Positions 3,078-32,000 of a stretch of 32,000 bases of DNA are shown in pieces (the stretch's first letter is position 1; each line of letters begins with the position of its first letter). Under the pieces are notes generated by a model. That model was not told where the DNA came from. It did no database searches and was given only the letters and a program-made list of their open reading frames with translations. This stretch comes from Opitutales bacterium (lineage in GTDB: Bacteria > Verrucomicrobiota > Verrucomicrobiia > Opitutales > PNEW01), in the NCBI GenBank assembly GCA_965219535.1, contig CBDCNV010000002.1:30001-62000 (forward strand), in the 5' to 3' direction. Both the position numbers and the translations under genes were made by a program.

Positions 3078-3395
3078 TGATTGGACCCCGTTTTTCGTAC
3101 CAATTATTAAGTGAGAGAGCTACCGGGTGTTAATGGTTTTAGGATTGATGTATAGGATAGATCTTGGCGAAGTGAGGGCGTAGCCCGAGCGTGGCCAAGA
3201 TCTGAAATGAATCAGACAAACTCTTGGGGCTTTTAAAGCCTAAACGACTGTGGGGATGTTCATAGTTATAGGTCTGACTCCATTGTTCGATTACCACTTG
3301 TGCTTCAGCTACGCTGAGCAACACTTCACGGTTCAACATGAGCGCTTCGCTATGTCGTCACTACGTTCCTCGGTACATCGCGTAAGCGGTTGTGA
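3078..3395 (-). mobile_element. Nested fragment (end plus 3' part of orfB) of the 'type 2' IS, replacing about 230 bp of IS copy A
   Basis: It aligns with 17251..17545. ORF 3139..3339 reads LNREVLLSVAEAQVVIEQW..YN.EHPHSRLGFKSP, matching the C-terminus of ORF 17280..18131. Confidence 0.8.
3339..3375 (-). repeat. Mini-insertion E3 (37 nt) inside the transposase codons for D-E-C-L-N-R-E
   Basis: The coding strand reads cgcgatg[taccgaggaacgtagtgacgacatagcgaagcgctca]tgttgaaccgtgaag. The uninterrupted homolog at about 17508..17532 reads cgcgatgAGtgtttgaaccgtgaag. Confidence 0.7.
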
Positions 3396-3829
3396 AACGA
3401 CTCGATGAAACTGAAGGCCGCAGTAAGAGGTGCTTATCACAGCAATACGCGAGGTGGGGCTATCTCGAAGATCACGAAGCTGTTGAAGGACGAAGGCTGG
3501 CAGGTGGGTAAACGGCTCGTGCAACGTATACGATGCGAACCGGGCTTGGCGATCACCCACGCAAGCTAAGACATCGGCGCAGGAGTGTTTTCACCGGGCT
3601 GCCGACCAAGGCCGAACAACCCGGCCAGGTTTGGACCTGGGATTTTATCCACGATAAGACGGTCCGCGGTGGGAGTCTCAAAATGCTGACCGTCCTCGAC
3701 GAGTACACCCGCGAATGCCTGGTGATCCATGTCGATCGCCATATCCGTGCGTAAACGGTATGCGGTATTATGCAAAAACTGCTCGATCGTCATGGGCTGC
3801 AAAATATATTCGTAGCGACAACGGTTGCG

Positions 3830-3862
3830 TTCCGAGGAGCGAAGCGACGACATGCGAAGCCA
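3830..3862 (+). repeat. Mini-insertion E1 (33 nt) just after the SDNG codons of the transposase
   Basis: aacggttgcg[ttccgaggagcgaagcgacgacatgcgaagcca]tttattgaaaag. The sister copy at about 7095..7125 has aacggttccgAGtttattgaaaag. Confidence 0.8.
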
Positions 3863-3941
3863 TTTATTGAAAAGGAATTGCGAACTTGGCTGACTGCGAT
3901 GAAAATCAAAACCCTCTATATCGAACCAGGAAGCCCTTGGC

Positions 3942-3985
3942 TACCGAGCGAAGCGACACCTCAACGAGCGATAGCAAGAATAACA
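3942..3985 (+). repeat. Mini-insertion E2 (44 nt) in the P-W-Q-N-G codons just before the catalytic IESF
   Basis: cccttggc[taccgagcgaagcgacacctcaacgagcgatagcaagaataaca]aacgaatccatcgaatcg. The sister copy at about 7187..7213 has cccttggcAGaacggatacatcgaatcg. Confidence 0.85.
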
Positions 3986-4345
3986 AACGAATCCATCGAA
4001 TCGTTCCATGCCCGTTTTCGCGAGGAGTGTTTAAACCGTGAACAGCTATGGACTTTGACCGAAGCCCGCGTGGTGATCGAAGATTGGCGCTGGCTTTACA
4101 ATAATGTCCGCCCCCCACTGCAGCCTCGGCAATGTCACCCCACGGTGCTTCGCTGAAGACCTCAATACCAAAGGTTCGGGCTCCATTCGGGCTACACCCT
4201 CATTGCGCCCAGACCTTGACTTGCTCTACCAACTTAACTTCAACATTAACCTCTCCAGACTAACTCTCATAGTGGTCTAGTTTGTGTAACCCGACCACCT
4301 CAAAAATCGATATATACAGAGTAATATCGTTATTTGACAGTTAGA

Positions 4346-6091
4346 TTAACTGTCTCGAAATGGGGGAATTACCGTTTCTTCAATATATTTACGTGACTTT
4401 TCTGCCATTTCATCAAGGAAGTTAGGATTCTGAAAAAGATCATCTCTTACCTTTTTTTGGATTTCGCTAAAACTTATATATCTAAGTTCAGGTTGTAGTG
4501 CACGGCTTTGTAAACAGTTAAAAAATTCTTCAGGATTATTTTTGAAATCAAAATACTGTTCCGTCGTTTCAAAATCAGAAATATTAAAAAACTGCAGTGG
4601 CAAAGTATCAGTATTAATACTAAAAACATCTCGATTTAGTTTTTCAACTATCTTGGCTTCGATAATGTGCGAATATTCATGCGTAATAGGAAATTCACCA
4701 TAAATAATCACGCATGGGGTAATACGCTCAATTCGTGGTATTTTCTCTTTTGAGACCTCAACATCTCCTTTATTTATCGCATCCGATAGATTCATCGCCT
4801 GATCAACTGCTCCACAGAGAGTCTCAACTAATAGTTCAAGATTCCCTGTCTGTCTAAGTTTTAAAGTTGGTAATAAAGATTTAATCTCGAATACATACGC
4901 AACACGCTTGAAAATTAATAGAATATCCCCTTCTAACTCATTCTTTTTCTTTCCAATTTTATAATTAAAAACAGTTCGAATTCCATCCGCTTCAGAAAAC
5001 CACTTAATAAAGAGACATTTCACGTAAGCTTCGAACAGATACCCACATTCACTTCTTAAATCTTTTACCTCATCATCAAACAATTCGCGACCGACTTGCT
5101 TTTTATAAACCTCTTGAACAAGATAAGGTAAACCGAATAAAAACTTATTAAGTACAAGCTGTTTTGAAAAACAAATTCTATTTTCTCCAATAATTAAATT
5201 TGGGTATATTCTCGGAGCAGTAGCCTTATACAGTGTTTCGTATAAATTAGAGGAGACTGTATGTTGTTTAGCAAGGCCTTCTGGTGTGATTGAAGCAAGG
5301 TCGACAAAATCAATCAGTTTCGGATATTCGTTTAGTAACTTTTTAAATAAAATCTCTGGTCGAAAATATAGGTGTGTTGCGTCGGGATTTTCAGGTTTCA
5401 ATTGTCCCCCTATTCCCGCCATCAAAAATGCACATATAATAAATTCTTTAGCCGAAAGGGAGAATCGTTTTTTAAACCACTCATCTATTGAACAACCCGT
5501 TACTTTACTGAAATCGTCATTTACCTCTGTAGCATTTGCGATTGTAAATAACCTTGCATTAGAAAATCGATAGTTATTAAAAAAACGACACGCGAGTACA
5601 TTTTTAAAGAAAACGGAAAATGTTTCAGGTGTTAAATCTTCCCAACACCGCATATCTCTAAAAAGATCAGAGGGTGCCATATTTTCATGTAACGAGAGAA
5701 TTATATGTATAAGCGGTTGCCTCTCCTTTATAGTTTGAAGCTTAGCCCCAAACCTTGATGAGCAGTATTTACAGGTGAGTTCTAAAGTTGCAATTAATGC
5801 TTGATCAGAGAGGGGATGAAAAAAATCAGGATCTTGCTGATATATCGAATTAACTTTTTGTTGCTGGTCAGGATTGAATAAATAAATCAAAAGATTATTA
5901 AGATGTTCTTGGTATTCAGCTGACTTACTATCAATGTTTTTTTGGAACACCAACTCGTTCATGTTCTTAAGCAGAGCTAAAACATTTATACAGGACACAA
6001 TATTTAAGGATGCCAGTATTTTTTTGCATTTACTTAGAGTTAATGCATACCCATATACATCTGTAGCAGTTGGTATAGAAGCTAAATTCAT
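4346..6091 (-). CDS. Orphan 581-aa protein with a PD-(D/E)xK nuclease-like core; function unknown (candidate defence or restriction-like nuclease)
   Basis: This is a single long ORF in a markedly AT-rich block. The core motif arrangement is GYLFEAYV (helix with E), then EGDILLIF (strand with D), then YVFEIKS (ExK). The N-terminal roughly 340 aa look helix-rich, with no Walker or other motif I recognise. Confidence 0.55.
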   Translation of the reverse strand: MNLASIPTATDVYGYALTLSKCKKILASLNIVSCINVLALLKNMNELVFQKNIDSKSAEYQEHLNNLLIYLFNPDQQQKVNSIYQQDPDFFHPLSDQALIATLELTCKYCSSRFGAKLQTIKERQPLIHIILSLHENMAPSDLFRDMRCWEDLTPETFSVFFKNVLACRFFNNYRFSNARLFTIANATEVNDDFSKVTGCSIDEWFKKRFSLSAKEFIICAFLMAGIGGQLKPENPDATHLYFRPEILFKKLLNEYPKLIDFVDLASITPEGLAKQHTVSSNLYETLYKATAPRIYPNLIIGENRICFSKQLVLNKFLFGLPYLVQEVYKKQVGRELFDDEVKDLRSECGYLFEAYVKCLFIKWFSEADGIRTVFNYKIGKKKNELEGDILLIFKRVAYVFEIKSLLPTLKLRQTGNLELLVETLCGAVDQAMNLSDAINKGDVEVSKEKIPRIERITPCVIIYGEFPITHEYSHIIEAKIVEKLNRDVFSINTDTLPLQFFNISDFETTEQYFDFKNNPEEFFNCLQSRALQPELRYISFSEIQKKVRDDLFQNPNFLDEMAEKSRKYIEETVIPPFRDS

Positions 6092-6237: not shown

Positions 6238-7213
6238 TGTGGTTGAGACCACGAAAACAGGTCCACTAGAAAAGTTAGTCTGGGACACCTGGAAAGGACT
6301 CAGACAATGAAAGGCAAAAGATATACAACCGAAGAGAAGATACGGATGCTGCGGCAGGCAGACAAAGGGAAAACGATCCTGGAAGTATGCCAGGAGAACA
6401 ACATAAGCGAACAGACCTTCCACCGCTGGAAACGTGAGTTTGGGATGATTGATGTCAACCAGGCCAAGCGGATGAAGGAACTCTTTGAAGGAGAACGCGC
6501 GGTTAAAGCGGATGCTGGCGGACAAGCTGCTGGGGATAGAGATTCTGCAGGAGACGCTCGAAAAAAAACTGTAAGCCCTGGGCACAAGCGGCAAGTGGCA
6601 GAGAGACTTGTGGCCCGGGGCCAGTGTTCGATACGTGGAGCGTGGCGATACTTTCACCTGCACCGCTCCACCTATGCGTATCGGGCGAAGTATCCTGATG
6701 CCTGGCTAACGAAACAGAAGGCGGCAGTAAGGCGGTTATCACGGCAATACGCGAGGTGGGGCTATCCGAAGATCACGAAGCTGTTGAAGGACGAAGGCTG
6801 GCAGGTGGGTAAACGGCTCGTGCAAGGTCTGCGACGTGAACTGGGCCTGGCGATTCCCCCACGCAAGCCAAGACGCCGGCGCAGGGGTGTCTCCACCGGG
6901 CTGCCGACCATGTTTGGACCTGGGACTTTATCCACGATAAGACGGTCCGCGGTGGGAATCTCAAAATGCTGACCGTCCTTGACGAGTACACCCGCGAGTG
7001 CCGGGTGATCCATGTCGATCGCCATATCAATGCGGAGAAGGTGCGCGGGGTTATGCAAAAACTGCTCGACCGTCATGGGCAGCCAAAATATATTCGCAGC
7101 GATAACGGTTCCGAGTTTATTGAAAAGGAATTGCGAACTTGGCTAACTGCGATGAAAATCGAAACCCTCTATATCGAACCAGGAAGCCCTTGGCAGAACG
7201 GATACATCGAATC
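6238..7213 (+). mobile_element. 'Type 1' IS3-family element, copy B; 3'-truncated at 7213 and frameshifted
   Basis: 6241..6483 is near-identical to 2838..3073. The true orfA frame (..KENARLKRMLADKLLGIEILQETLEKKL*) is reached only after an indel near 6485. An A8 slippery run lies at 6561..6568. OrfB (..RWGYPKITKLLKDEGW..DEYTRECRVIHVDRHI..YIRSDNGSEFIEKEL..PGSPWQNGYIES) has a deletion of about 19 nt near 6910. Homology to copy A ends abruptly after atcgaatcg. Confidence 0.8.
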
Positions 7214-7309
7214 GTCTATATATAAATATATCAATGACTTAAAATGTTCCTGTATTATTATTGTCAATAAAGCTTGCAAGTAAACCTGATTGAGGCATTA
7301 GTTTGCTTG

Positions 7310-8560
7310 ATGGAGGCAACTAAAGGAAAACGCAATAAGTCGAGTCCCTTTAATAGCTGGGAGCACCCTAAAAAAAGTTCTATCACAATCAGGGAAGTTA
7401 TCAATCGAACCGCTGGTGATGATTACGGATTTTCCTACCAGGTTTTGATTCCCGCGAAGTTCGCGGGCAAGCGAATGAGAAGACAGTTCAAGGATAAAGA
7501 GGTCGCTTTTGCCTGGGCAAAAGAACAACACGAACAATTGCTCCAACACGGGCAGCATCATTATAACCTGACCGGTTACCAATCCAAGGACGCTTTCCAT
7601 GCATTCGAAATACTGGAAGGTTTCGACATTACCCTCTCGCAGGCAGCGGAGTTTGCCAAGCTGCATTTGAATCCCCCTGCCGGTGATATCTCAGTGCTGG
7701 AGTTAACGGCAACATTGATTGAGGAAAAAGAAAACCGGAATCTGCGCTCGCGCTCGATAAATGATATCCGCTCCCGGCTGGGAATCTTCTCAAGAAGCTT
7801 TGGGAGCCGAGTGGTCAAGGAGATTTCTCAAACGGAAATAGAGGAGTGGCTCAATAACTTTACCGATCTCTCTGTGAGAAGCATTATAAACTACCGCTTA
7901 TGCTTAAGCAGCTTTTTTAACTATGCGGTGAACAAGGGATTTCGGGTCGATAACCCCGTGCAGAAAATTCCAATCCCAAAAATAGACTGGAAGCCCCCTG
8001 TCATTTTAAAAGTCACTCAAGCAGAAGATTTGGTTTTGCATGCGGCAAAGACAGATGAAGATATGGGGCTGCTCCCATTGGTGGCACTAGGGCTGTTCGC
8101 AGGGTTAAGGAGCACTGAGATTTACCGGCTTGACTGGTCGGCCATCGACCTGGAGCGCAAGTTACTGACGGTTGGCCCACAGATAGCTAAAAAGCGCCAG
8201 TTAAGAGTCATGGATCTTATGGACAATTGTGTGGCATGGTTGCAGCTATGTCATAATAAGAAGGGTAAAGTAACGCCCGCAAACTCATATATAAACTTTA
8301 CTAAGTTAACAAAACAAGCGGGCTTTCCCCATTGGAGGGAAAACTACAGCAATGCGATGCGCCACAGTTTTGGCAGCTACTATTATGCCTTGACCAGTGA
8401 TTCAAGCAAGACCGCAGCCATGCTCGGCCATAGATCGAGCGACCAGATGCTTTTTGATCATTACCGGAGTCTTGCTAGCAGAACAGAGGGGGGGAAATAT
8501 TTCTCAATCCTCCCGGCAAATGCAAAGCAATCGGTTGTCGCATTTAACCCATTAGATTGA
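7310..8560 (+). CDS. int: Tyrosine site-specific recombinase / phage-type integrase
   Basis: Catalytic-domain motifs are present: ..GLRSTEIYRLDWSAIDL.. (R), ..AMRHSFGSYYY.. (H-x-x-R region) and ..LGHRSSDQMLFDHYRSL (H and Y). The ATG at 7310 (MEATKGK..) is preferred over the upstream TTG at 7274. Confidence 0.85.
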   Translation: MEATKGKRNKSSPFNSWEHPKKSSITIREVINRTAGDDYGFSYQVLIPAKFAGKRMRRQFKDKEVAFAWAKEQHEQLLQHGQHHYNLTGYQSKDAFHAFEILEGFDITLSQAAEFAKLHLNPPAGDISVLELTATLIEEKENRNLRSRSINDIRSRLGIFSRSFGSRVVKEISQTEIEEWLNNFTDLSVRSIINYRLCLSSFFNYAVNKGFRVDNPVQKIPIPKIDWKPPVILKVTQAEDLVLHAAKTDEDMGLLPLVALGLFAGLRSTEIYRLDWSAIDLERKLLTVGPQIAKKRQLRVMDLMDNCVAWLQLCHNKKGKVTPANSYINFTKLTKQAGFPHWRENYSNAMRHSFGSYYYALTSDSSKTAAMLGHRSSDQMLFDHYRSLASRTEGGKYFSILPANAKQSVVAFNPLD

Positions 8561-17239: not shown

Positions 17240-17555
17240 TCCAGGGGCTGTGATCGGATCCCGTTATTCGTACCAATTTTTAAGTGAGAGAGTTACCGGG
17301 TGTTAATGGTTTTAGGATTGATGTATATGAGAGATCTTGGCGCAGTGAGGGCGTAGCCCGAACGCGGCCAAGATCGGAAAGGAATCTGACAAACTCTTGT
17401 GGGCTTTTAAAGCCTAAACGACTGTGGGGATGTTCATTATTGTAATTATGACGCCATTGTTCGATTACCACTTGGGCTTCAGCTACGCTGAGCAACACTT
17501 CACGGTTCAAACACTCATCGCGTAATCGGTTGTAAAACGACTCGATGAAACCATT

Positions 17556-17599
17556 TGTTATTCTCGCTATGGCTCGTTGAGGTGTCGCTTCGCTCGGTA
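17556..17599 (-). repeat. Mini-insertion E2 (44 nt) in the type 2 transposase, at the same codons as 3942..3985
   Basis: The coding strand reads ccctggc[taccgagcgaagcgacacctcaacgagccatagcgagaataaca]aatggtttcatcgag. It matches E2 of copy A at 42 of 44 positions. Confidence 0.85.
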
Positions 17600-17680
17600 G
17601 CCAGGGACTGGCTGGATCGATATAGATCGCCTTGAGATGTTTTTGTCTGACAACCACTGCTGCACCTGATGAGCAATGAA

Positions 17681-17713
17681 TGGCTTCGCATGTCGTCGCT
17701 TCGCACCTCGGAA
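17681..17713 (-). repeat. Mini-insertion E1 (33 nt) in the type 2 transposase, at the same codons as 3830..3862
   Basis: The coding strand reads aacggcagtg[ttccgaggtgcgaagcgacgacatgcgaagcca]ttcattgctcat. It matches E1 of copy A at 32 of 33 positions. Confidence 0.85.
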
Positions 17714-18271
17714 CACTGCCGTTGTCACTACGGATATAGCTAGGAGCTCCCTCCTCTTCGATGGCCTCGCTAAGCACAGAGAGGACATCGGCTGAGGTGA
17801 GTTGACGAGCTACCCGGATATCGAGGCATTTACGCGTATATTCATCGATCAGAGTCATCATCTTTAATGGACCGCCATTGTCTGTGCGATCATGGACAAA
17901 GTCCCAGGACCAAACGTGATTGCGTCCTTTTGCTTTAGTGGGGAGCCCTGTTGAGACCCCTTGACGGGGTCTGCGCTTTTTCGTTCGCTTTACCTGTAAG
18001 CCCTCTGCACGTCGTACTGCCTGCACAAACTTCCTGCTTGTTGTCCAGCCCTCCTTTACCAGTAAGGCACGGACGCGCCGATAACCGTAGCGCGGATGTT
18101 CCCAGGACAAAGTTACAATCCGCTCGGCCAATCGTTGGGCTTTCTTGCTGGTCTGCTTGGGCCGATAGCTGAACGTTGACCAACTGAGGCTGAGATAGGA
18201 ACATGCCCTCTAAAACGAGCACAGCCCTCTCTCAGCCGCATCTTTTACTGCTCGCTTCTTCTGCTTTGGCC

Positions 18272-18538
18272 TCACCATTTTTTTGACAGTGTTTCCTCCA
18301 TCACCTGATTCTTCAGCATTTGATCAGCAAGCAGCTTCTTCAGTTCGGTGTTTTCTTTTTCCAGCTCTTTATAGCGCTTCGCATCGGCCAGCTCCAAGTT
18401 GCCATACTTTTTACCCCAGCGATAGAAGGTCTGTTCACTTAGGTTGTTTCCTCGGCAGATCTCTTGTACCGTTTTACCGGTATCGGCTTGCCGTAGTATT
18501 ATTATAATCTGTTCTGTTGTGTATCTTTTTCTTTTCAT
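18272..18538 (-). CDS. IS3-family transposase OrfA (HTH plus leucine zipper)
   Basis: MKRKRYTTEQIIIILRQADTGKTVQEICRGNNLSEQTFYRWGKKYGNLELADAKRYKELEKENTELKKLLADQ.. is the typical IS407-group OrfA pattern. Confidence 0.85.
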   Translation of the reverse strand: MKRKRYTTEQIIIILRQADTGKTVQEICRGNNLSEQTFYRWGKKYGNLELADAKRYKELEKENTELKKLLADQMLKNQVMEETLSKKW

Positions 18539-18600
18539 TGAGGTGATCTGTTTATTCCGATAACCTCTCTCTGTAAATGATACGGTTTTGGGGGGTCACA

Positions 18601-21989: not shown

Positions 21990-22158
21990 CTCCACTCTAC
22001 ATATATTGATCCTTCCTTACTATCTGGTTCTATTTTTAGGACTTCCTTGTAGAAAGCTCTAGGACGATCAATGTCATTTGTAGTAATACAACAATGGGTA
22101 AAATTGATTGGTTTTTGTGTTCAAGAATCTGTTAAATTTATATTTTCTATACGATTGA

Positions 22159-24078
22159 GAAACACCCCCACGCATGTGGGGAATACTATCTCTCACCGCC
22201 GACATGTTCTTGGCGTCCAGAAACACCCCCACGCATGTGGGGAATACCATCTGATGCACACGTCGTCACCAAAGGAGATAGAAACACCCCCACGCATGTG
22301 GGGAATACAGCGATTCGTTAAAATCTATGAGGACCGCGATAGAAACACCCCCACGCATGTGGGGAATACTTCAACCCAAGCAAGGCGCTCCCCCTTTAGT
22401 CGGAAACACCCCCACGCATGTGGGGAATACCTCGCAAGTGTTTCAATAGCCCCGTCCTCTCTAGAAACACCCCCACGCATGTGGGGAATACGTCTTTCGG
22501 GTAAGCCGTACCATTGCTCAATGAGAAACACCCCCACGCATGTGGGGAATACTTATTTATGCTTTAAAACCCCGAGCCAAAGCAAGAAACACCCCCACGC
22601 ATGTGGGGAATACGCCATGGGGATAGCTACACGGCTCTATATGGTGGAAACACCCCCACGCATGTGGGGAATACGAGGTTACTTCACCTCTTTCGCCACC
22701 ACCCTGAGAAACACCCCCACGCATGTGGGGAATACTTGTTTCTTCCTTGGGATCTTTGGGGCGCATCGGAAACACCCCCACGCATGTGGGGAATACGATG
22801 TGAGTCAGGGCCTCCCGCCTCCAGTTATAGAAACACCCCCACGCATGTGGGGAATACTCGGTAACTGCACGTCCTCACACCGGTGAGAGGGAAACACCCC
22901 CACGCATGTGGGGAATACAACATCTATCCCACGAGACCGCGAGCAACTACAGAAACACCCCCACGCATGTGGGGAATACCAGCGCATTGAGATTGGCGCG
23001 CATGGTCGCTCGGAAACACCCCCACGCATGTGGGGAATACCTCAATATGCCTTCCATTGCTGCCTGTGCGTTGGAAACACCCCCACGCATGTGGGGAATA
23101 CTCTTAAAGAAAGATGTTATTGACAGAGCTTCAAGAAACACCCCCACGCATGTGGGGAATACGTCACCCCTCCACCGCTTGGAAAAATAACCCTGGAAAC
23201 ACCCCCACGCATGTGGGGAATACACTGACAGATCTCTTATTTTAGTGGGCTGGATAGAAACACCCCCACGCATGTGGGGAATACTCCGCCATTTCCCTCA
23301 ACATTTAATTCTGCCGAGAAACACCCCCACGCATGTGGGGAATACCGGTCCACCCCCTAAGATCCATCTCGAATACCGGAAACACCCCCACGCATGTGGG
23401 GAATACCCATTTGCTGAGGTTATAGTTTACAAAGATATGAGAAACACCCCCACGCATGTGGGGAATACTCTTCAAATCTATGTAAAGTAGGAGTTCGAAA
23501 AGAAACACCCCCACGCATGTGGGGAATACTCTGTTCAGTAGCTCCATAGTCACTGGCAATTAGAAACACCCCCACGCATGTGGGGAATACCGGTTACTGT
23601 CGCCAATATATTAATAGTAAATGGAAACACCCCCACGCATGTGGGGAATACTCTTAATAGCCCGCTTAGCGACAGAATCAGATAGAAACACCCCCACGCA
23701 TGTGGGGAATACGAAAACGCCGCTCAAAGCACACAATCGAGGCAAGAAACACCCCCACGCATGTGGGGAATACTATTAATTGCGCGTCTTGCAAGTGAAA
23801 ATGATAGAAACACCCCCACGCATGTGGGGAATACCTAGCGACAGAAGCGGACTTGTCTAGTGTTTTAGAAACACCCCCACGCATGTGGGGAATACTCGAC
23901 CGTAGTTCCAACAGGGGAAACAGAGGCAGAAACACCCCCACGCATGTGGGGAATACTTCGAGTTCGGCTTCCTGCAGGTTACTTCTTTGGAAACACCCCC
24001 ACGCATGTGGGGAATACCGAGATTTCTCCTCTGATATACACCTGCACCGGGAAACACCCCCACGCATGTGGGGAATAC
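22159..24078 (-). CRISPR. Type I-E CRISPR array: 32 identical 28-nt repeats and 31 spacers (30 of 33 nt, one of 34 nt)
   Basis: The repeat in transcribed (minus) sense is GTATTCCCCACATGCGTGGGGGTGTTTC. It has a CCCCAC/GTGGGG stem and an ATGC loop. The period is 61 nt, with repeat starts at 22159, 22220, ... 24051 and one 62-nt step at 23379->23441. The orientation is set by the cas operon and leader on the 24.1-kb side. Confidence 0.97.
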
Positions 24079-24387: not shown

Positions 24388-24669
24388 TTATAACCTTTTT
24401 TCTATTACTAGCTGTAAGCCGGACAATTCAGTCAATGCCCTGCCAGTATCACCAATACCGTGTACTACGTATCCAGGTGCAATTGATGTAGAACGAAACA
24501 CCATCAAGCCGCTTTCACGCGGGCAATGTTTGTAAAGATAGTCCACAACTTTTTTCGCTACAGAATCTTTTACACTCGAAACAAAAACATTGGGGCGAGG
24601 CTCTACAAACCAGAGTTTCATGCGACCACGCACGACCGGCGGTAAATCATTTGCGATAACCACGAGCAT
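24388..24669 (-). CDS. cas2: Cas2 (type I-E)
   Basis: MLVVIANDLPPVVRGRMKLWFVEPRPNVFVSSV.. parallels E. coli YgbF [33 protein letters not shown]... Confidence 0.92.
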   Translation of the reverse strand: MLVVIANDLPPVVRGRMKLWFVEPRPNVFVSSVKDSVAKKVVDYLYKHCPRESGLMVFRSTSIAPGYVVHGIGDTGRALTELSGLQLVIEKRL

Positions 24670-25555
24670 GTTTTTTCCCTAGTAATGCTTCAATATCCAC
24701 AACAATTTTTCCCAAAAGATCTGATTTAATGACACGCTGACGAAACGCAGAGGCCACTATATGCTTGTTGTATTGGCCCGCCATCTCGAGGGTTAGAGAA
24801 AATGCCAGATCAATGCATAACTCCTCTTTGTATAAATCGGCCAAGTCGTATACAAATGGTAACGGGCTGCCAGAATGAATAAAACCAATATGTGGAGAGT
24901 ATCCCAGGCTATGGATAACAGAAGCGACAATGCCGTAGAGTGCAGCATTTGAGGCGGTCAGAATCCGATTGGTCATGTCGCTTAACTCAAATTTGCCAGG
25001 AATATAATTTCTGCCTTTCCATCCAACTTGGTACTGCTGTGCTTTGACCTCATAAAGTAAGCGAACCCGAGAACCCTCCATACCCATCATTTCTTTCAGG
25101 CTTTTACCGGTAAGTTTAGCCACCGAGAACCTGTGAGCGAACATACGCCTTGCGACCTCGACCGATTTTTCAGGATTTGCAGATAGTTCGACCTGATGAC
25201 GCAGGTTGTGGGTATCAGCTGTAGGAGTCTGTCCCACTGCGTAAAATACCAGGGAATCTTCCCCAACCCAGATAATACTGCAGTTCGCAGCCGCTGCAAT
25301 TTTGACCGCTTCGTGGGTTATGGTTGTGCCTGGGCCTAATAACAAGCAGTTAATTGTGGCTATGGGCAATCTGACTATGTTCATTTCGCAGTCGATCCAT
25401 TTCAGACTGCTATCGTCTATCTCGAGTCGGCCTCGCTCGAGATAAATGAAAGGATATTTATCCTTTACCCGTGGCAGGGTATCACGCGTTATTCTTACCA
25501 GCAGCCGATTATCGGTTGCTTTGCTATTTCGGTATGTGGTCTGATCCCCTGCCAT
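24647..25555 (-). CDS. cas1: Cas1 (type I-E)
   Basis: ..LLLGPGTTITHEAVKIAAAANCSIIWVGE..GMEGSRVR..YSPHIGFIHSGSPLPFVYDLADLYK.. parallels E. coli YgbT (..MLEPGTRVSHAAV..GIEGSRVR..GFVHTGKPLSFVYDIADIIK). The start is taken at ATG 25555; the ORF track gives TTG 25567. Confidence 0.93.
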   Translation of the reverse strand: MAGDQTTYRNSKATDNRLLVRITRDTLPRVKDKYPFIYLERGRLEIDDSSLKWIDCEMNIVRLPIATINCLLLGPGTTITHEAVKIAAAANCSIIWVGEDSLVFYAVGQTPTADTHNLRHQVELSANPEKSVEVARRMFAHRFSVAKLTGKSLKEMMGMEGSRVRLLYEVKAQQYQVGWKGRNYIPGKFELSDMTNRILTASNAALYGIVASVIHSLGYSPHIGFIHSGSPLPFVYDLADLYKEELCIDLAFSLTLEMAGQYNKHIVASAFRQRVIKSDLLGKIVVDIEALLGKKHARGYRK

Positions 25556-26276
25556 CCACAGTAACAATCGTTACCCTGCGATCACGATATAGTTTATTAG
25601 TTCCGAATTGAATCGGTACGTCGTTCAAGGTAATAACCTCATCACCTTCATGCTCCCCGTTGAGGACGCGAAAGTCCTCCATCAATTTTTTCCCAATGGC
25701 AATTTGTTCTGCCTGTTTTAAAATCTCTTCTTCGGATTCATCTTGTCCCCGATAAATAAAGTCGGTCGGTACACAATTCTTGCGCCCAAGGTAGAGATCC
25801 CATGTCGGATATTTCAGCGCATTACTCACAGTTTGAATTATATCATCAGGCACCTGTAAAGCGACTGCGAACGCCATGTCCTGCAAGTAGAAACGATAGG
25901 TCATTTTTGTTCCTCCCCCTACTGCTTTTCCTCCTCCCATGGTTTTCGGGATCATAAGTTTTTCCCAATCATCTTGGGTATTATAACCACTTCCTACCAT
26001 GTGAAAGTCCTGCAATATAGGTTCTCTGGGTTGTTTTTGTGGCTCTTTTTCATTAAATTGTTTAGTGCGAACATAAGCCACCACGGTCATATTCAATTTA
26101 GCAAACTTTTCCAACAATTCTCGTTGTTCCCCCCCTGCACCCATAGCACTGCATACCAACCCCAAAATTCCTGATTTGGTAGGGAAATTAAGGGTATCTC
26201 TTCGATCAAATTTAGAGTCATGCCCCCAGGATTGCAGAGGAGCTTCTAACCATAATAATATATACGGGGTTTTCAT
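25524..26276 (-). CDS. cas5: Cas5e (CasD)
   Basis: MKTPYILLWLEAPLQSWGHDSKFDRRDTLNFPTKSGILGLVCSAMG parallels E. coli CasD MRSYLILRLAGPMQAWGQPTFEGTRPTGRFPTRSGLLGLLGACLG. An ATGA overlap couples it to the cas7 stop. Confidence 0.92.
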   Translation of the reverse strand: MKTPYILLWLEAPLQSWGHDSKFDRRDTLNFPTKSGILGLVCSAMGAGGEQRELLEKFAKLNMTVVAYVRTKQFNEKEPQKQPREPILQDFHMVGSGYNTQDDWEKLMIPKTMGGGKAVGGGTKMTYRFYLQDMAFAVALQVPDDIIQTVSNALKYPTWDLYLGRKNCVPTDFIYRGQDESEEEILKQAEQIAIGKKLMEDFRVLNGEHEGDEVITLNDVPIQFGTNKLYRDRRVTIVTVDGRGSDHIPK

Positions 26277-27325
26277 GGCTCCACCGTTGCGTGACCTCTA
26301 AGAGCGGCTACAAGATCATCGATATTAAAGTCGTCATCCGCAGAAAGAGTATATTCCCCTACCTTTCCAAAAAGGGACCCGGCCATTTTCTCCTTACTTG
26401 AGAGTTCTTGATTCAGTTGATCAATACTAGGTTCAAGATAGCCAAACCCATTCTGTTTGACCGGTTTATCGAATGCTAATTGCAAGCGCTGTCCATTGCG
26501 CACCAGTATTTTTGCGTAATCCCAGAAGGACGCACCAGACTGTGTAGATTGACGCGCTGATGGAATAGCAGAAAACAAAGCTTTGGTAAATGCCTCAACT
26601 GCTTCAGGTAAGCTTTCACCAGAGAGAGTCTGCCACAGTTGATCGAGATCTAGGCTGATGTAACGATAGTAAGTAGCGGAGTTAAATTCTAGTGAACCCA
26701 TATGCGCTGATCCGGATTCCTCCTTTCCCTTTAAATCATCCAGCGCTGTGAAGAACTCAACCTCGTTACTTACTTTATGAGTTGATATTGCATGAGCAAA
26801 TGAGGCTGCAGCTTCAATATTCAATTCAGCTGCCTTAGCTACCATACGACCAAAGAGTGCGATATCAAGACCGTCCATTGCTGGATTCAGTGTTTTTTTC
26901 GCGCTCTTATTGACATCCTTATCTTTGATTATGTCACAATCAAACTTTTTCTCACATGCCAATTTAGCGAATGCATTGGCTTCTGATTCAGTAAAGAAAT
27001 GCAATGTGTCCTCAGTCAAAAATTCTGCAATTTTTGCTCCACATTTCTTTGCCTGTTCATCGTCTGCACCTTGAGTCTGACATGCTTTCTCTACTAACTC
27101 AGCCACCTTCTTGGTGCGTATGGCTAACTTAATGCCAAACTCTTTTAACGCCATACGAACTGGGCGTTTCCAGGCTTGTGAACTCACTCGAGCGCGCGTC
27201 ACACCTCCAACAACAGCGGTTTTAGGTGCACCAACATCATCCCGGTTGAGACAGGTCACTGGGAAAGACTGTAGGATGTGAAATTCGATACGAGTATTTT
27301 TTAACGGATTGTTTTGTTGAACCAT
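26273..27325 (-). CDS. cas7: Cas7e (CasC/Cse4)
   Basis: The motifs CLNRDD, RVSSQ, DIALFGRM, AHAISTH, FTALDDL and GSAHMG fall in the same order as in E. coli CasC. Confidence 0.93.
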   Translation of the reverse strand: MVQQNNPLKNTRIEFHILQSFPVTCLNRDDVGAPKTAVVGGVTRARVSSQAWKRPVRMALKEFGIKLAIRTKKVAELVEKACQTQGADDEQAKKCGAKIAEFLTEDTLHFFTESEANAFAKLACEKKFDCDIIKDKDVNKSAKKTLNPAMDGLDIALFGRMVAKAAELNIEAAASFAHAISTHKVSNEVEFFTALDDLKGKEESGSAHMGSLEFNSATYYRYISLDLDQLWQTLSGESLPEAVEAFTKALFSAIPSARQSTQSGASFWDYAKILVRNGQRLQLAFDKPVKQNGFGYLEPSIDQLNQELSSKEKMAGSLFGKVGEYTLSADDDFNIDDLVAALRGHATVEP

Positions 27326-27350
27326 GAATATGCCCTTAATCTAATTTTAT

Positions 27351-27968
27351 TTATAGGTTGGAATGAGGATCGATTTGTAAAAGACCGAAGCCAAAAGCAC
27401 GGCCACGGCCAATACCCTGGCGAAAGCTCTTCTTAAATTTCGCACGGTCATCAACAGTTAAATGGCCTTGTAACGTAGCTGAACCGAGAGTAACCCGATT
27501 ACCTTTTTTCTCGAACTGATTCACGCCAAGATTGTTCACCTGTAATGTTGGAATATATACCTTAAATCCCCAACTCTCCGGTGCTTTATTGGCAAACCAT
27601 TGCATAATTTCCTCTCGGCCACGAATTGCAAATATTTTACGGCTTTCACTTTCACGCCTAGTTGGGTTAATGGTGATCTCGAAACGATAATGTTCATAGT
27701 CTAAAAATTTCTCAGGGATTTCCTTGATCTCTACCTCACCATGTTTTGGCTTACGTGGTGCACGCTGAGACAGAATTAAAATATGCCTACTATGAAAATC
27801 TCCACCTTTGTCGACATAGAGAATCCCACTGGATAAACTGATTTTTTTTTGATCATCGTTTCGCACATCGTCGAACATGCCATACACGACACGGTGTAAT
27901 GAATAAGTATCGGAAATTTTTAAGGCCACCATGTCGAGCCGACTTAGGCGTAATACACTGGCAATCAT
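27351..27968 (-). CDS. cas6e: Cas6e (CasE/Cse3) crRNA endoribonuclease, located between cse2 and cas7
   Basis: ..YRFEITINPTRR.. and the C-terminal glycine-rich loop ..FRQGIGRGRAFGFGLLQI parallel E. coli CasE ..YFRLRANPIKT.. and ..VQQGIGPAKSMGCGLLSL. Confidence 0.88.
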   Translation of the reverse strand: MIASVLRLSRLDMVALKISDTYSLHRVVYGMFDDVRNDDQKKISLSSGILYVDKGGDFHSRHILILSQRAPRKPKHGEVEIKEIPEKFLDYEHYRFEITINPTRRESESRKIFAIRGREEIMQWFANKAPESWGFKVYIPTLQVNNLGVNQFEKKGNRVTLGSATLQGHLTVDDRAKFKKSFRQGIGRGRAFGFGLLQIDPHSNL

Positions 27969-28507
27969 GCTGCACCCTTAGTTTCGCTAGGTTCCTTATT
28001 GGTTATAGCGTAACGATAAAAGTCTTGCGCCCACTGAGGCTTGACTGCTTGTTCCTGCCAATGGAATTTTAAAAGTTGAGCGAGCAGTGTAGCATAGTCC
28101 AACGGCACTTTTCCTTTACTGGCGATAAGGCTGAGTATGGGACGCAAAATGCGACATGCTTCTTCTACTGAATCACAGGCCAATAGACGACGCAGTTTAG
28201 CTTTGGCCTGATCGCTTTGGTTCCCCTCGTCATAACAGCTGGCAATACCCCAACCAATACCCCTACTGCCGTTATGCTCAATTTTTGCCTTTGCAATTGC
28301 TGCCGCAACGGTCGCATAAGGTAATCTTTGCCATGGTTTTTCCAGATCAACGTGAAAGCCAGCCAGGATTTCCCAGCTTTGATATTCCGTATCAGGATTG
28401 TCAGCGCGACGAAGTGCCGCTGCGATACCTTTATCATTGTTACTTCGTTCAATGATATAATCCACAAAAGTAGTGGATTTATTCCGGTTTTTATTTTCAA
28501 TGCTCAT
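27965..28507 (-). CDS. cse2: Cse2 (CasB/Cas11) small subunit
   Basis: A 180-aa helical protein between cse1 and the next Cascade gene, with ..GIAAALRRADNP.. as in Cse2 families. It has a strong SD (ggggggag) and an ATGA overlap with cas6e. Confidence 0.8.
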   Translation of the reverse strand: MSIENKNRNKSTTFVDYIIERSNNDKGIAAALRRADNPDTEYQSWEILAGFHVDLEKPWQRLPYATVAAAIAKAKIEHNGSRGIGWGIASCYDEGNQSDQAKAKLRRLLACDSVEEACRILRPILSLIASKGKVPLDYATLLAQLLKFHWQEQAVKPQWAQDFYRYAITNKEPSETKGAA

Positions 28508-28518
28508 ACTGCTCCCCC

Positions 28519-30009
28519 CTATGTCTCACTAAGGTATTTTGCCGGTAAATGCGGCCGATTTTTTGCCCAAGCATCAAGCTGTCTGGCTGTCTCTTTAGGA
28601 CAATAAACGTCATAAGCTCTATAAGCAATATCAGAAAAAGTTCTACGCAGAACGCGTGTCTTGTCCTGGTCTTCGCAGTTGCCGACGAGTTGCTGAAATT
28701 CTCTTTCACAAAGCTGCCAAAATAGACTGCTGCACTGTTTAGCTTGTTTCATTCCATCCATTTGCTGAGTCTTGAAGAAGCCCATGGTTGCTCCATAGGT
28801 TCTTTTTGCAATCTTTTCGAGCTCTTGCATCTCTGTTGTTAACCGCTCAAACCAAAGATCACCAACCCACTCCTTATGAAGGGTTATTGAGGACTCTACG
28901 TAATCATCAGTCCCTGAAACATATTGTTCACCAGCATTACTGCTGACACGTAACCCACCCGACCAGATACAAAAAATAGGCATTTCTTCTTTGGCTCGCG
29001 TGAGACCATACTTAATTTGATGACAGTCAAAACCTCCTTTTATGGTGGTGCTGCCCATAAAACTGAGCAATGCTGTCAACTCGCGCCATGGTCGCTTTTG
29101 TGGATCGACCCAAAGCGCTTTAGGGGCCTTTTCTGCGAAACTGACAGCGATACTAGGATCATAAACATTATCTTTATGACTAGCATGAGCGATACCCTCT
29201 GAATAGTGCAATCCTTTCTGTTCTAACAGACAAAATCGGCCAAGAGGTATTAGCCGCCCCATGTAGCTATTTTTTAATGATTCAGCTATAGGATCTGCCT
29301 CACCGGTCGGCATGCATTCCCACGGAGCAGTACCTAGCCCTTTCGTATAAATTTCCAATGCCTTAATTTGCTCTGCAGTTAATAGATTTAACCAAAGACT
29401 ATTTACTAGATTGTCTGCGAGCAGATAACTGTGCATGTACCCCATGTATCCAACCGAACTTCCAGATTTTCCCGAAGAAGCCTTACCTTTATCATTTGTT
29501 TTCCCTTTGTATCCCAATGTTAATACAATTTTATTATCTACTTTCTTTCCACCCAGACTGAAACCCATTAATACAAGAAGGAGCATCGCACGCTCTGCAT
29601 CAGACAATTCCTTCTCGATATGAGATTGAATGAGAACAGTTGTGTTACCTGTGGCAACTTCTGGCAAAACTACTCCGAATGGCAGTAGTTTTGCATCGAC
29701 AATTGCAGGTACTTGTAAAAACGGCTTGTCTCCGTAGAGCCAAAACTGATCGTACCATTTCTGCAAATAAGCTGAACACTTTTCAGCCATTCCCTTCGAT
29801 CCCAATTCTTTCCAAGCGGCATCGTTTTTTGGTGTACAAGCAGCTTGTGCAATGGCAAGCAGCAGTTTGGTAATAGCAATCTTTTCAACTGGATTACCAC
29901 CGAGTGCTCGAAAAGAAAACTCGGTAAATATCTGTTTAAGACTGACCCTGCCCACATCCGTCACTGGAACCCAGGGTTCATCAATCAGGTTATACCGCCT
30001 GTTTATTAT
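28519..30009 (-). CDS. cse1: Cse1 (CasA/Cas8e) large subunit; the true start probably lies upstream of the GTG at 29964 given in the ORF track
   Basis: ..DQFWLYGDKPFLQVP.. parallels E. coli ..DMFYLNHAEHPFMQTK... The in-frame upstream codons (29965..30009) encode I-I-N-R-R-Y-N-L-I-D-E-P-W-V-P, which is the conserved Cse1 N-terminal NLLxxxWIPV motif. See the finding on the start codon. Confidence 0.85.
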   Translation of the reverse strand: MINRRYNLIDEPWVPVTDVGRVSLKQIFTEFSFRALGGNPVEKIAITKLLLAIAQAACTPKNDAAWKELGSKGMAEKCSAYLQKWYDQFWLYGDKPFLQVPAIVDAKLLPFGVVLPEVATGNTTVLIQSHIEKELSDAERAMLLLVLMGFSLGGKKVDNKIVLTLGYKGKTNDKGKASSGKSGSSVGYMGYMHSYLLADNLVNSLWLNLLTAEQIKALEIYTKGLGTAPWECMPTGEADPIAESLKNSYMGRLIPLGRFCLLEQKGLHYSEGIAHASHKDNVYDPSIAVSFAEKAPKALWVDPQKRPWRELTALLSFMGSTTIKGGFDCHQIKYGLTRAKEEMPIFCIWSGGLRVSSNAGEQYVSGTDDYVESSITLHKEWVGDLWFERLTTEMQELEKIAKRTYGATMGFFKTQQMDGMKQAKQCSSLFWQLCEREFQQLVGNCEDQDKTRVLRRTFSDIAYRAYDVYCPKETARQLDAWAKNRPHLPAKYLSET

Positions 30010-32000
30010 CGCTTTGTCTCCTTTTTATTACCTGATATCCAATATTGCTGTTGTATTTAATATCGAACTTGCCTGAAACAGGTTCGCCTCCTGGAAGTTT
30101 CAGTTCGCCGCTTTCCTCTACTAAAGCTACTCGCACAAGACTTTCGTCGTAATCCCTGTTTCCGAGATATAGATAATCACTTAACCAATGGATAGATTTT
30201 CTTGGAACGACGGCAGGTGCATGGTGTTGCGCCACATTGACAATCTGTTGCATGATGCACACTGCCAATTCTCTCCACCGGTATTTGTTTCTGGCTCTAA
30301 TATAGGTCGGTAGAATTAGTGTAATGCCCCCCTCTAGTAAAGTCAATTCCACACCTCCTTCAGGGTGAAATTGTATGTTTCTTAACAGTAATACTTGCAC
30401 GGATTCCTGTTTGCTGTAACGCGTTGTTGCCTTGTTTTCTGGTAAAGTAGTACCTGCCTTCGATATCCCTATCTGAGCCATTGATTTCATCGCCTTGATA
30501 CCAACACGATGTTTCCTTCGATTACCGTTGATTAGCTCATGCTTCCAAGTTGCCATCTGATCCTGCTCATCCCGTTCCTGATAAGTGTCTTCAATTAATC
30601 CACGGATGTCTCGAGGGATCGAAACATCTCGTTTTTCATGCCAGACTTTAAGGCTTCTGCACAATACATAAGGATTATAAACAAATGCGGTGTTTCCAAA
30701 TGCTTTTTCTGGGTTTTCTATTGCTGCACCCAGTTGCGGTGCGATAATCCAAGCATCACGCTTGGCCTCTGGGGGCCGCGATCTCTCAGAATGCCGCCAT
30801 AATCGACCCAAGCGCTGTAACAACATATCAGTTGGGCAAAAACGTGTAATTATGAAGTCAGCGTCAATATCCAGTGATTGCTCGAGGACTTGGGTTCCTA
30901 CCAGAATCCGTCCCTGGTCGTTCCGTTCTTTCACGCAGCCTTTTCCAAAAAGTTCAACCCAATACTGTTCAATTCTGTCCCGATCCTTTTTTGTAAAACG
31001 AGAATGTAAGAGACCACATCTGATATTCATTTCATGTGTTCGGGCTGCGAGCCGAGAATAGATATCCTGGGCTTCGGACACTGAGTTTTCTACCCACAGG
31101 ACTTGCTGTCCTTCCCCTGCACGTTGCAACGCTTCATCAATGGCTTCTCTTTGCTTAACCCACGACAAATGCACCGTGTCGTTTGTCGGAACCATAAACT
31201 CGATTTCTTGCAGATCACAATCCAAGGGAAATACAGAAACTAGAGGGTAACCATGTTTCTTTGGAGCCACACCCAGTAATTCTCTGCGTTTATCAGTGGA
31301 GAGAGTTGCACTCAATATAATGACTGTGCATTGGAGTTGACGGAGTGCAGAGACAAGTACTTTCAATAAGGTTCCAGTGTAGACATCATAGCTGTGGACT
31401 TCGTCAAGAATCACAACTTTTCCGGCCAACCCGAACGTTCTGACAAAGCCATGCTTCACGTTCATAACAGCCATCAGTGCCTGATCAATGGTTCCGACCC
31501 CGAAAGGTGCAAGGATTTTGCGTTTGGTTGACTCGAACCAGGACCCTCCAGGTTGGCCCTCTACACCCATTTGAGTTTGTTTGAGCCAGGCATTCCCATG
31601 CAGCAGAAAAGCATCCCGGTGCTGACAGCTATCAGTTAAGATTTGTCCCAGAAAATTAACAACGCGGCCAAGAATCTTCTCTGAGGTAAGCTGCGTAGGT
31701 AGGGCGAAATAGATACCTGTAGCTCGGTCCTTCACCATTATCCGGTAGGCGACATAAAGAGCGGCTTCGGTTTTACCAATCCCCATCGGTGCCTCCATAA
31801 CATAAACACCCTGGGTATTACAGCACTGGATTAATGTCTGCTGAATTGGCCTAGGGGCAAAACCGAAAATATCTTCAAAGCTCTGATCTTTCTTTAAATC
31901 GGGTCTCATAAAGCCAGCTGAATCCAACACTTTACTGATCTGCGATTGCCATTCTTGACTTGGAACGTCAAAAAAAGATCCCGACCCTATCCAGTCCGAA
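29990..32000 (-). CDS. cas3: Cas3 helicase-nuclease (partial; the N-terminal HD domain lies beyond the window end)
   Basis: Helicase motifs are present: APMGIGKTEAAL (I), VILDEVHSYD (II, DEVH) and SATL (III). The frame stays open upstream of the track's GTG to position 32000 and reads SDWIGSGS.., resembling the ADWxGS motif at the end of Cas3 HD domains. Confidence 0.93.
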   Translation of the reverse strand, partial: SDWIGSGSFFDVPSQEWQSQISKVLDSAGFMRPDLKKDQSFEDIFGFAPRPIQQTLIQCCNTQGVYVMEAPMGIGKTEAALYVAYRIMVKDRATGIYFALPTQLTSEKILGRVVNFLGQILTDSCQHRDAFLLHGNAWLKQTQMGVEGQPGGSWFESTKRKILAPFGVGTIDQALMAVMNVKHGFVRTFGLAGKVVILDEVHSYDVYTGTLLKVLVSALRQLQCTVIILSATLSTDKRRELLGVAPKKHGYPLVSVFPLDCDLQEIEFMVPTNDTVHLSWVKQREAIDEALQRAGEGQQVLWVENSVSEAQDIYSRLAARTHEMNIRCGLLHSRFTKKDRDRIEQYWVELFGKGCVKERNDQGRILVGTQVLEQSLDIDADFIITRFCPTDMLLQRLGRLWRHSERSRPPEAKRDAWIIAPQLGAAIENPEKAFGNTAFVYNPYVLCRSLKVWHEKRDVSIPRDIRGLIEDTYQERDEQDQMATWKHELINGNRRKHRVGIKAMKSMAQIGISKAGTTLPENKATTRYSKQESVQVLLLRNIQFHPEGGVELTLLEGGITLILPTYIRARNKYRWRELAVCIMQQIVNVAQHHAPAVVPRKSIHWLSDYLYLGNRDYDESLVRVALVEESGELKLPGGEPVSGKFDIKYNSNIGYQVIKRRQSDNKQAV

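Follow-up and report, generated by a model that had tools for sequence, protein, structure and literature searches.

Two short inserts, termed E1 (33 nt) and E2 (44 nt), interrupt the transposase genes of IS3-family insertion sequences (IS) in a 32,000-nt stretch of the Opitutales bacterium contig CBDCNV010000002.1 (assembly GCA_965219535.1, positions 30,001 to 62,000; this whole stretch is referred to here as the window). The inserts are real, they are young relative to their hosts, and they were acquired laterally at identical codons. The same inserts recur in dozens of IS3 copies of two Opitutales genomes; across 25 IS lineages the variability of E1 is about 20 times below that of its flanks, and nearly identical IS copies are found with and without it. 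With moderate confidence, E1 and E2 are regarded here as mini-elements of Opitutales-type Verrucomicrobiota, similar to repetitive extragenic palindromes (REPs) and small dispersed repeats (SDRs), that parasitize IS3 transposase genes and spread together with the IS as well as by precise site-for-site copying.

Inserts and host genes in the window

The window contains IS3-family copies of two types, of which some carry inserts and others retain the empty sites. The relevant features are the following (slashes mark site boundaries, here and below):

2836-4283, plus strand: type-1 IS3-family copy A, degenerate, host of E1 and E2
3339-3375, minus strand: E3, letters TACCGAGGAACGTAGTGACGACATAGCGAAGCGCTCA, in a reversed type-2 fragment (3078-3411) nested in copy A
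3830-3862, plus strand: E1 in type-1 copy A, matching the type-2 E1 at 32/33 positions
3942-3985, plus strand: E2 in type-1 copy A, matching the type-2 E2 at 42/44 positions
6247-7215, plus strand: type-1 copy B, insert-free
17251-18598, minus strand: type-2 IS3-family host IS, with orfA, a predicted A-run slippery site and an rve-type orfB
17514-17515, minus strand: empty E3 site, gatg/AG/tgt, in the full type-2 IS
17556-17599, minus strand: E2 in the type-2 IS, letters TACCGAGCGAAGCGACACCTCAACGAGCCATAGCGAGAATAACA, 44 nt
17631-17645, minus strand: frame-restoring 2-nt indel, ACATCTCAAGG versus ACATCAAGG in relatives, 50 nt after E1
17681-17713, minus strand: E1 in the type-2 IS, letters TTCCGAGGTGCGAAGCGACGACATGCGAAGCCA, 33 nt
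17841-17842, minus strand: empty E4 site, gatcgatg/AA/tatacg, in the type-2 IS
18272-18538, minus strand: orfA of the type-2 IS, with a match to PF01527 (HTH_Tnp_1)

A preliminary description of this DNA had reported the near-identity of E1 and E2 between the two IS types and had placed them after S-D-N-G-S and between P-W and N-G-F-I-E-S, respectively; both claims were borne out. The DNA around the two inserts is 54-66% identical between the IS types (49/81 positions between the inserts, 45/84 in the 80 nt upstream and 53/80 in the 80 nt downstream), and the number of matches to E1 or E2 expected in shuffled sequence is 0. In the type-2 IS, the Glu codon that follows S-D-N-G-S loses its AG to E1, which adds a net 31 nt, shifts the frame and contains two GCGAAGC mini-hairpin motifs. 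E2 stands in for the AR of the Gln codon in P-W-Q-N-G, adds a net 42 nt, and is in frame and stop-free, and E3 takes the place of the AG of the Glu codon in the R-D-E-C-L-N motif. That a dinucleotide is replaced (2 nt give way to 33 at E1 and to 44 at E2) follows from copy B, since its empty sites read AG: at 7114-7115 for E1 (ggttccg/AG/ttt) and at 7195-7196 for E2 (ttggc/AG/aac). The AG targets listed in the preliminary description were correct. Outside the window, the empty type-2 E1 sites of L024 and L062 read GGCAGTG, then AG or AA, then TTC. The E4 site, empty in the window, is filled by the 44-nt E4 in most type-2 copies of the Opitutales genomes. When 5.6 kb of extra flank is added to the window, 5/5 elements of the E1-E3 kind lie inside IS3 orfB genes.

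The type-2 host IS ends in TGACCCC... and ...GATCA, and the bases flanking the window copy form no target duplication. The sequence TCAAAAAAATGG at the end of orfA, together with an orfB in the -1 frame, would constitute an A-rich slippery site of the IS3 kind, and relatives of the type-2 orfB carry PF00665, PF13683 and PF13276 domains (rve/DDE). The orfB of the window copy itself holds a TAG stop, E1, the +2 indel and E2. Because the indel restores the frame 50 nt after E1, the open reading frame (ORF) at 17280-18131 (283 codons) spans both inserts, running through E1, then 18 out-of-frame codons, then E2; P0029, from a 754-kb contig, is arranged alike. At the left end of the type-2 IS (~18555-18575), the subterminal sequence TTTACAGAGAGAGG reads TTTACCGAGAGAGG in L045 and L056, a form similar to the insert head TACCGAGGAG.

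Occupied sites and the wider repeat family

A pattern covering E1 and E3 was scanned against one genome per species for 185,579 species; it matched two Opitutales metagenome-assembled genomes (MAGs, OY829953.1 and CBDANS01; 77 matches) and one Lentisphaerae contig, and nothing else. All 77 of the Opitutales matches fall at two IS3 orfB codon sites, namely after S-D-N-G-S (E1) or in R-L-R-D/E/C-L-N (E3). The same inserts recur in independent assemblies, which comprise a long-read metagenome and short contigs from ENA, the pair of Opitutales MAGs and further short contigs from NCBI, and a marine metagenome. The matched loci and the window together yielded 79 IS copies, which were aligned to insert-free references. 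Five sites were found to be occupied, each by its own variant:

E5, 25 nt: A-run frameshift window, in reverse orientation to the gene, net +23 nt
E4, 44 nt: L-I-D/E/Y-T-R, bringing an in-frame TGA
E1, 33 nt: after S-D-N-G-S, net +31 nt
E2, 44 nt: P-W/Q/N-G, net +42 nt
E3, 37 nt: R-L-R-D/E/C-L-N, net +35 nt

The sites lie in conserved motifs (LIDEYTR, SDNGSEF, PWQNG and RLRDECLN) or in the frameshift window, and at all five an AG or AA after G or C is swapped for 5'-TWCCGAG...mini-hairpin(s)...CA-3'. E1 is present in 72/79 copies, a frequency biased upwards by the choice of loci for the presence of E1 or E3, and 62 of these 72 are identical over the full 33 nt. E2 and E3 are also found in a fourth IS type, the protein of which is only 56-60% identical to that of type 2. 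No partial inserts were found at other IS positions among the 79 copies. Type-3 IS, which have more divergent motifs, are unoccupied despite G/AR triplets at equivalent places. Two tandem type-3 IS3-family copies, one intact and one decayed, lie 5.6 kb to the left of the window (L001, 15560-17830) and are insert-free.

The consequences for the transposase genes are mostly disruptive: a frameshift results from E1, E3 and E5, and an in-frame stop from E4. Exchanging the insert for the dinucleotide gives a full-length ORF in 6/8 copies of cluster 8 and 13/15 copies of cluster 17, and the 12/12 copies of cluster 5 share one common further TAG stop. Disrupted copies were therefore amplified, and in the IS lineages concerned the inserts are the main or only ORF-breaking lesion. 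Their action is at the level of DNA; E5 runs opposite to the gene. Contiguous removal of an insert never restores the native GAG or CAG codon. Frame-restoring second-site changes are found in three lineages, i.e., the window type-2 copy with its +2 indel, L187, in which E1 is cut down to an in-frame 21-nt insertion, and L191, which carries E1 and a 23-nt partial E2. In P0002, with E2 alone, a 321-aa ORF stays intact. Intact insert-free OrfB proteins in related assemblies (P0005, P0007, P0010, P0012 and P0020) could supply the disrupted copies with transposase.

Elements of the same family, 28-35 nt long and of the form TACCGAG-hairpin-CGACATC(T/C)(T/C)NCA, occur outside IS copies at Opitutales loci and in marine and other metagenomes. 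In arrays of the heptamer CCCTGAA they always sit at the phase CCCTG/AA/CCCTG, with hairpins that differ between arrays; AATCCGA arrays host 28-35-nt elements as well, and so does a miniature inverted-repeat transposable element (MITE) with the terminal inverted repeat (TIR) TTGTCATTGCGAGGAGC.... Such heptamer arrays, with 28-nt elements at one fixed phase, were seen repeatedly in Opitutales-type genomes and marine metagenomes, at L011 (~4022), L050 (~5289), L072, L093, L131, L163, L170 and others. A MITE-like palindromic repeat with the TIR TTGTCATTGCGAGGAGCAACGCGACG... was seen at L006 (5230-5430), L037 (4420-4560) and L009 (4540-4660), with one or two 28-nt elements at symmetrical positions in its arms.

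The 28-35-nt relatives fold into a stem-loop. In a set of 21 distinct 28-mers, 97.6% of the cells of the 4-bp stem are paired, compensatory changes occur in 3/4 pairs, and the observed value was reached in 0/500 shuffles. E1-E4 are longer members of the family that share its head and the core GAC(G)ACAT and contain GCGAAGC, GCGNNAGC or similar motifs. The architecture of the family is 5'-TWCCGAG, one or two GNA or GNNA mini-hairpins, (C)GAC(G)ACAT, and a short tail ending in CA-3', in units of 25-45 nt. The tail reads ...GCCA in E1, ...ACCA in E5 and ...TTCCA in the 28-mers, and TCA or ACA in the remaining ones. In E1, E3 and E4, CGTC adjoins the mini-hairpin but is confined to the complementary strand, which in the 28-mers has GTCG. 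Both GCGNAGC and GCGNNAGC are exceptionally stable DNA mini-hairpins (PMC13037366). Rfam gave no match for the IS at a permissive threshold and none for four repeat-rich loci at the gathering threshold, and a full-text literature search for TACCGAG returned primers only.

The single Lentisphaerae match (L054, 7300-7487, in a MAG) is an E1/E3-like element of 35-36 nt, TACCGAGGAGCGCAGCGACGACATAGCGAAGCGCC(A), in the duplicated 3' end of a tRNA-Ser gene, and this duplication resembles an att-site repeat. The core CG.AG.GACGACAT of E1 and E3 resembles the sequence adjoining site 1, with a 9-nt exact run: the E3 core CGTAGTGACGAC shares it with CGTAGTGACAAC, which codes for R-S-D-N in the type-2 IS a short way upstream of E1 (window ~17725-17745), and the cores of E1 and of the L054 element resemble the type-1 version of the same coding stretch. 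As nothing similar was seen at the other sites, this likeness is probably due to chance; it may hold a hint on origin or target recognition.

Gain, loss and movement of the inserts

Clustering of the insert-masked IS copies at 3% gave 27 lineages, with types 1 and 2 diverging by about 45%. Insert content is mosaic over these lineages and at odds with the IS tree: type-2 lineages carry E4+E1, E1 alone, E1+E2, E1+E3, E4+E1+E2+E3, E3 alone or E2+E3, and type-1 lineages carry none, E1 alone, E1+E2, E5+E1, E4+E1 or E5+E4+E1+E2. This incongruence agrees with the earlier proposal that the insertions are not shared by ancestry. Across 25 lineages, the nucleotide diversity is 0.021 for E1 versus 0.25 and 0.36 for the 40-nt flanks, and between types it is 0.021 versus 0.39 and 0.44, which, with the flank identities given above, upholds the claim that the inserts are far more conserved than their surroundings. 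Downstream of E1, seven E1-bearing type-2 lineages show dS values of 0.07-0.39 and dN/dS values of 0.15-0.3. Either E1 postdates the splits between these lineages, and selection kept the transposase functional while they took place, or strong constraint acts on E1 itself.

Pairs of filled and empty alleles provide direct evidence of recent gain or loss. Over 1265 nt, the insert-free copy L018, with intact orfA and orfB, is 99.9% identical to L003, in which E1 takes the place of AG; the one further difference is a T-to-C change 3 nt downstream. The tract in this pair is limited to 36-54 nt. In the fourth IS type, the sole local difference between L188 and L189 is E2 in the former versus AA in the latter. 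At least four unrelated flank contexts show exact boundaries of the element: the left neighbours of E1 are lineage-specific (CAGTG/, TTCCG/, ATCGG/ and TTCGG/), and so are the right ones (/TTCATTGC, /TTTATTGG and /TTTAATAG). Long conversion tracts spanning the inserts, which would have spoken against the earlier interpretation, were not found; E1 is bounded directly by lineage-specific bases. Each site holds its own variant only, whichever the IS type. In a scoring of the variable part of each variant with the flanks of the five sites, which took in both the same strand and its complement, no variant stood out for pairing with its own site.

The inserts also mark places of exchange and of failed or altered events. 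In chimeric IS copies the junction between type 1 and type 2 lies exactly at E1 (L026, L029, L047 and L059) or at E3 (L046); the inserts are islands of identity where different IS types recombine. Two aberrant products, GGCAGTG+TTCCGAGGAGCGAAGCG+AGTG+AG+TTC in L187 (3001-3942, P0003) and CCCTGGC+TACCGAGCGAAGCGACACC+TGGC+AA+AACGG in L191 (1501-2331, P0004), are built alike. Each keeps the first 17-19 nt of the insert and breaks off shortly after the first mini-hairpin; native sequence then resumes from a position 4 nt upstream of the insertion, leaving a 4-nt repeat of the left flank and an intact native dinucleotide, with the frame restored in both. These may be abortive or partly reverted inserts. 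In L007 (minus strand, 4512-5854; cluster 5, with 12 members), the Gln codon at the empty E2 site is deleted exactly (CCCTGG/AACGG versus CCCTGGCAAAACGG), which may be the scar of an event at the E2 target.

Five founder insertions, each of which would have arisen once, occupy the five fixed sites of IS3 genes, with a REP-type single-strand nuclease as the leading candidate for their origin. The inserts have multiplied passively, by amplification of the disrupted IS copies, and have moved sideways between IS lineages and IS types. Under the favoured reading, the sideways movement would be a precise copying from an occupied site to the empty homologous site of another IS copy, in a homing-like very short patch of at most ~50 nt. 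The codons of the conserved motifs would be the only sequence common to the IS types at these sites, and copying between homologous sites would explain why all five sites lie in motifs conserved across types. The trigger would probably be the stable mini-hairpins, acting either through stalled replication and template switching or through hairpin cleavage and ectopic repair. Copying from an occupied homologous site is favoured over fresh insertion from a pool of elements, because each site has its own variant and guide-like pairing did not emerge. The preliminary description had offered directed insertion or very short-patch conversion; of these, the short patch or a combination of both has the stronger support, and repeated fresh insertion has less.

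Several observations weigh against this reading. The sequence shared between IS types beside the inserts amounts to only 5-10 nt, too little for RecA-type recombination, and on the left side no donor-type base was carried over, a pattern closer to enzymatic cleavage at defined ends than to conversion. In standard nearest-neighbour folding, E1, E2 and E4 are no more structured than shuffled sequence, so that the case for hairpins in them draws on what has been published about their motifs. The L054 element lies between GTTCG and AATCC with no target bases apparently lost, so that replacement of AR is not universal. An all-against-all clustering of the ORFs around 33 genuine metagenomic copies returned only housekeeping genes in place of a partner gene, and a phmmer search with an approximate IS200 TnpA query sequence gave 0 matches in 5,519 ORFs from ~1.3 Mb of loci. 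The upward bias of the insert frequencies noted above belongs here as well.

A dedicated nuclease acting at the element ends is accordingly a serious rival, which we nevertheless consider unlikely. It would be a trans-acting REP-type nuclease or transposase, HUH-like, similar to a REP-associated tyrosine transposase (RAYT) or of another kind, that excises the element at defined ends and re-inserts it independently into the conserved motif of each IS type, without need of homology to a donor. The exact ends in unrelated contexts fit such an enzyme, as do the like replacement of AR at the five IS sites and in the heptamer arrays (with different hairpins, at one phase), the REP-like conserved ends with a covarying hairpin, and the REPs with CCA tails, many of them intragenic, that are known in Opitutus terrae (PMC3733652). 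Against it stand the strict pairing of variant and site in every IS type and the lack of variant-specific complementarity to the target; moreover, G/AR triplets are abundant in the IS and only five are used, type-3 IS with suitable triplets are unoccupied, and a candidate enzyme was found neither near the elements nor in the 1.3 Mb of sampled DNA. A bolder form of the parasitic reading, which is held only tentatively, takes the inserts as IS hyperparasites, i.e., dedicated ultra-small homing elements that target the catalytic-motif codons of IS3 transposases in any IS type, knock out the transposase and sweep all copies in a genome by an undescribed precise mechanism, possibly hairpin-directed copying of single-stranded DNA.

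Ancient single insertions in a common IS3 ancestor, kept by selection as tiny introns, bypass cassettes or regulatory hairpins and precisely lost from the empty copies, would account for the extreme conservation of the inserts next to flanks that reach a dS of 0.39 at a dN/dS of 0.15-0.3, for the ORF segments that remain open on either side, for the intron-like conserved positions across IS types, and for the intact 321-aa ORF of P0002. This is improbable, given that E5 is antisense, that E4 brings an in-frame TGA, that contiguous removal cannot restore the native codon once AG is replaced, and that cluster 5 was amplified to 12 copies despite its extra TAG. The frame repairs (the +2 indel in the window, the truncated E1 of L187, and E1 with truncated E2 in L191) would serve no purpose were the inserts taken out in the course of expression; Rfam gave no match, and the same family resides in non-coding heptamer arrays. 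A self-splicing intron or a translational bypass is likewise disfavoured on the sequences, for want of an Rfam match and of a restored codon, and because of the antisense E5 and the second-site frame repairs. Transport of the inserts with their flanks, by ordinary homologous recombination or long-tract gene conversion, has the common chimeric copies with junctions at E1 or E3 in its favour, as well as the one flanking base that changes along with E1 in L003. It is largely refuted, and hence very improbable, as the overall divergence of types 1 and 2 is about 45%, the flanks abutting E1 are lineage-specific on both sides, and the L018/L003 tract is limited to 36-54 nt. The probability of an assembly or sequencing artefact, or of chance similarity, is negligible: the inserts recur in independent assemblies, no match is expected in shuffled sequence, and no point was found in support of it.

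Two other candidates were rejected. A MITE is at variance with E1 and E2, which have no inverted termini and which replace two target bases without duplicating any, and guide-like targeting was set aside because the own site did not stand out in the scoring of variants against flanks.

Surroundings, significance and known systems

Next to the IS copies, the window holds a type I-E CRISPR-Cas locus (22127-24078 and 24388-31930) with 32 repeats of 28 nt (GAAACACCCCCACGCATGTGGGGAATAC), 31 spacers of 33-34 nt, and the genes cas2, cas1, cas6e-like, cas5, cas7, cse2, cse1 and cas3. An origin of the inserts from CRISPR spacers, or an escape from them, was rejected, since 0/31 spacers match the IS or the inserts; spacer integration was rejected too, for although spacers are 33 nt long like E1, the family spans 25-44 nt and has conserved ends. 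The window belongs to a 237,917-bp contig of the ENA metagenome assembly ERZ25072670. In that metagenome, contig ctg237915_4x_l (L190) is a lower-coverage strain variant of the region with an identical insert-bearing type-2 IS, and it has less DNA between cas2 and a HAD-hydrolase gene, suggesting a shorter CRISPR array. Elsewhere in the window (7216-8560), copy B ends right after the I-E-S codons at an AT-rich junction, which is followed by a gene for a 428-aa tyrosine integrase (PF00589); this junction is probably the end of an integrative element.

The base-exact pairs of filled and empty sites (AG versus 33 nt, AA versus 44 nt), the putative abortive intermediates and the many natural replicates in different flank contexts make the movement of 20-40-nt repeats testable. 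In dozens of IS3 copies no lesion other than the inserts breaks the transposase gene. As parasites of parasites, the inserts would shape IS activity, and their 33-44-nt islands of identity would lead to chimeras between IS types. In Verrucomicrobiota, IS3 transposase genes that look frameshifted or split may carry inserts and not be ordinary decayed pseudogenes. If the hyperparasite reading were true, an IS population would have been tamed, and this would be the first tractable system for the movement of REP- or SDR-sized elements without a transposase of their own.

Among known systems, tagged REPs (GTAG or CGTC) are stem-loops of 20-40 nt with an unpaired tag and a short tail, often CCA (Di Nocera et al. 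2013, PMC3733652), and the CGTC type has no known transposase (PMC3733652). Opitutus terrae is the richest in intragenic REPs, which add 7-8 in-frame residues there, and no transposase is among the hosts given for intragenic REPs (PMC3733652). The E family is similar in the stem-loop of its 28-35-nt members, and in its conserved unpaired ends, short tail, dispersed copies (including intragenic ones) and Opitutales hosts. It differs in its 5' tag, TWCCGAG and neither GTAG nor CGTC, and in the 2-bp mini-hairpins of E1 and E2, where REP stems have 6-9 bp. Unlike the O. terrae REPs, the E inserts are usually out of frame and disruptive, and E1-E5 are confined to five fixed IS3 transposase sites that recur across IS types. 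As for an association with RAYTs, no recurrent transposase was seen near the elements around the 33 metagenomic copies.

Other comparisons concern mobile DNA further afield. Group I introns and inteins home into conserved active-site motifs. The E inserts resemble them in lying within the most conserved motifs of the DDE region, in the otherwise identical filled and empty alleles, in being more conserved than the host gene, and in a patchy distribution off the host tree; they differ in having no ribozyme, intein, encoded endonuclease or splicing, being too small to encode anything, in inactivating the host gene, in residing in a host that is itself a multicopy selfish element, and in the loss of two target bases. 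Rickettsia palindromic elements are selfish palindromic DNA of 100-150 nt in ORFs, inserted in frame into hosts that stay functional and without a tie to one gene family or codon. Short palindromic repeats inside ORFs are common to both, whereas the E inserts differ in size, effect on the frame and fixed sites.

The closest systems also include the cyanobacterial SDRs of Nostoc and relatives, which Elhai et al. are said to have described in 2008: these are reportedly mobile repeats of 21-27 nt, with a hairpin that shows compensatory changes, residing in heptamer tandem repeats and mini-transposons. To our knowledge, no transposase is known for them. The 28-mers would match the SDRs in their covarying hairpin and in sitting within heptamer arrays (CCCTGAA and AATCCGA) and a MITE. 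The phylum is different, and the lengths run from 25 nt for E5 and 28 for the generic form to 33 for E1 and 44 for E2. Site-for-site recurrence in transposase genes is found for the E inserts, and we know of no report of it for SDRs. What sets the present elements apart from REPs and SDRs is the TWCCGAG tag, the mini-hairpins of E1 and E2, and the disruptive, site-for-site recurrence in the catalytic-motif codons of IS3 transposases across IS types.

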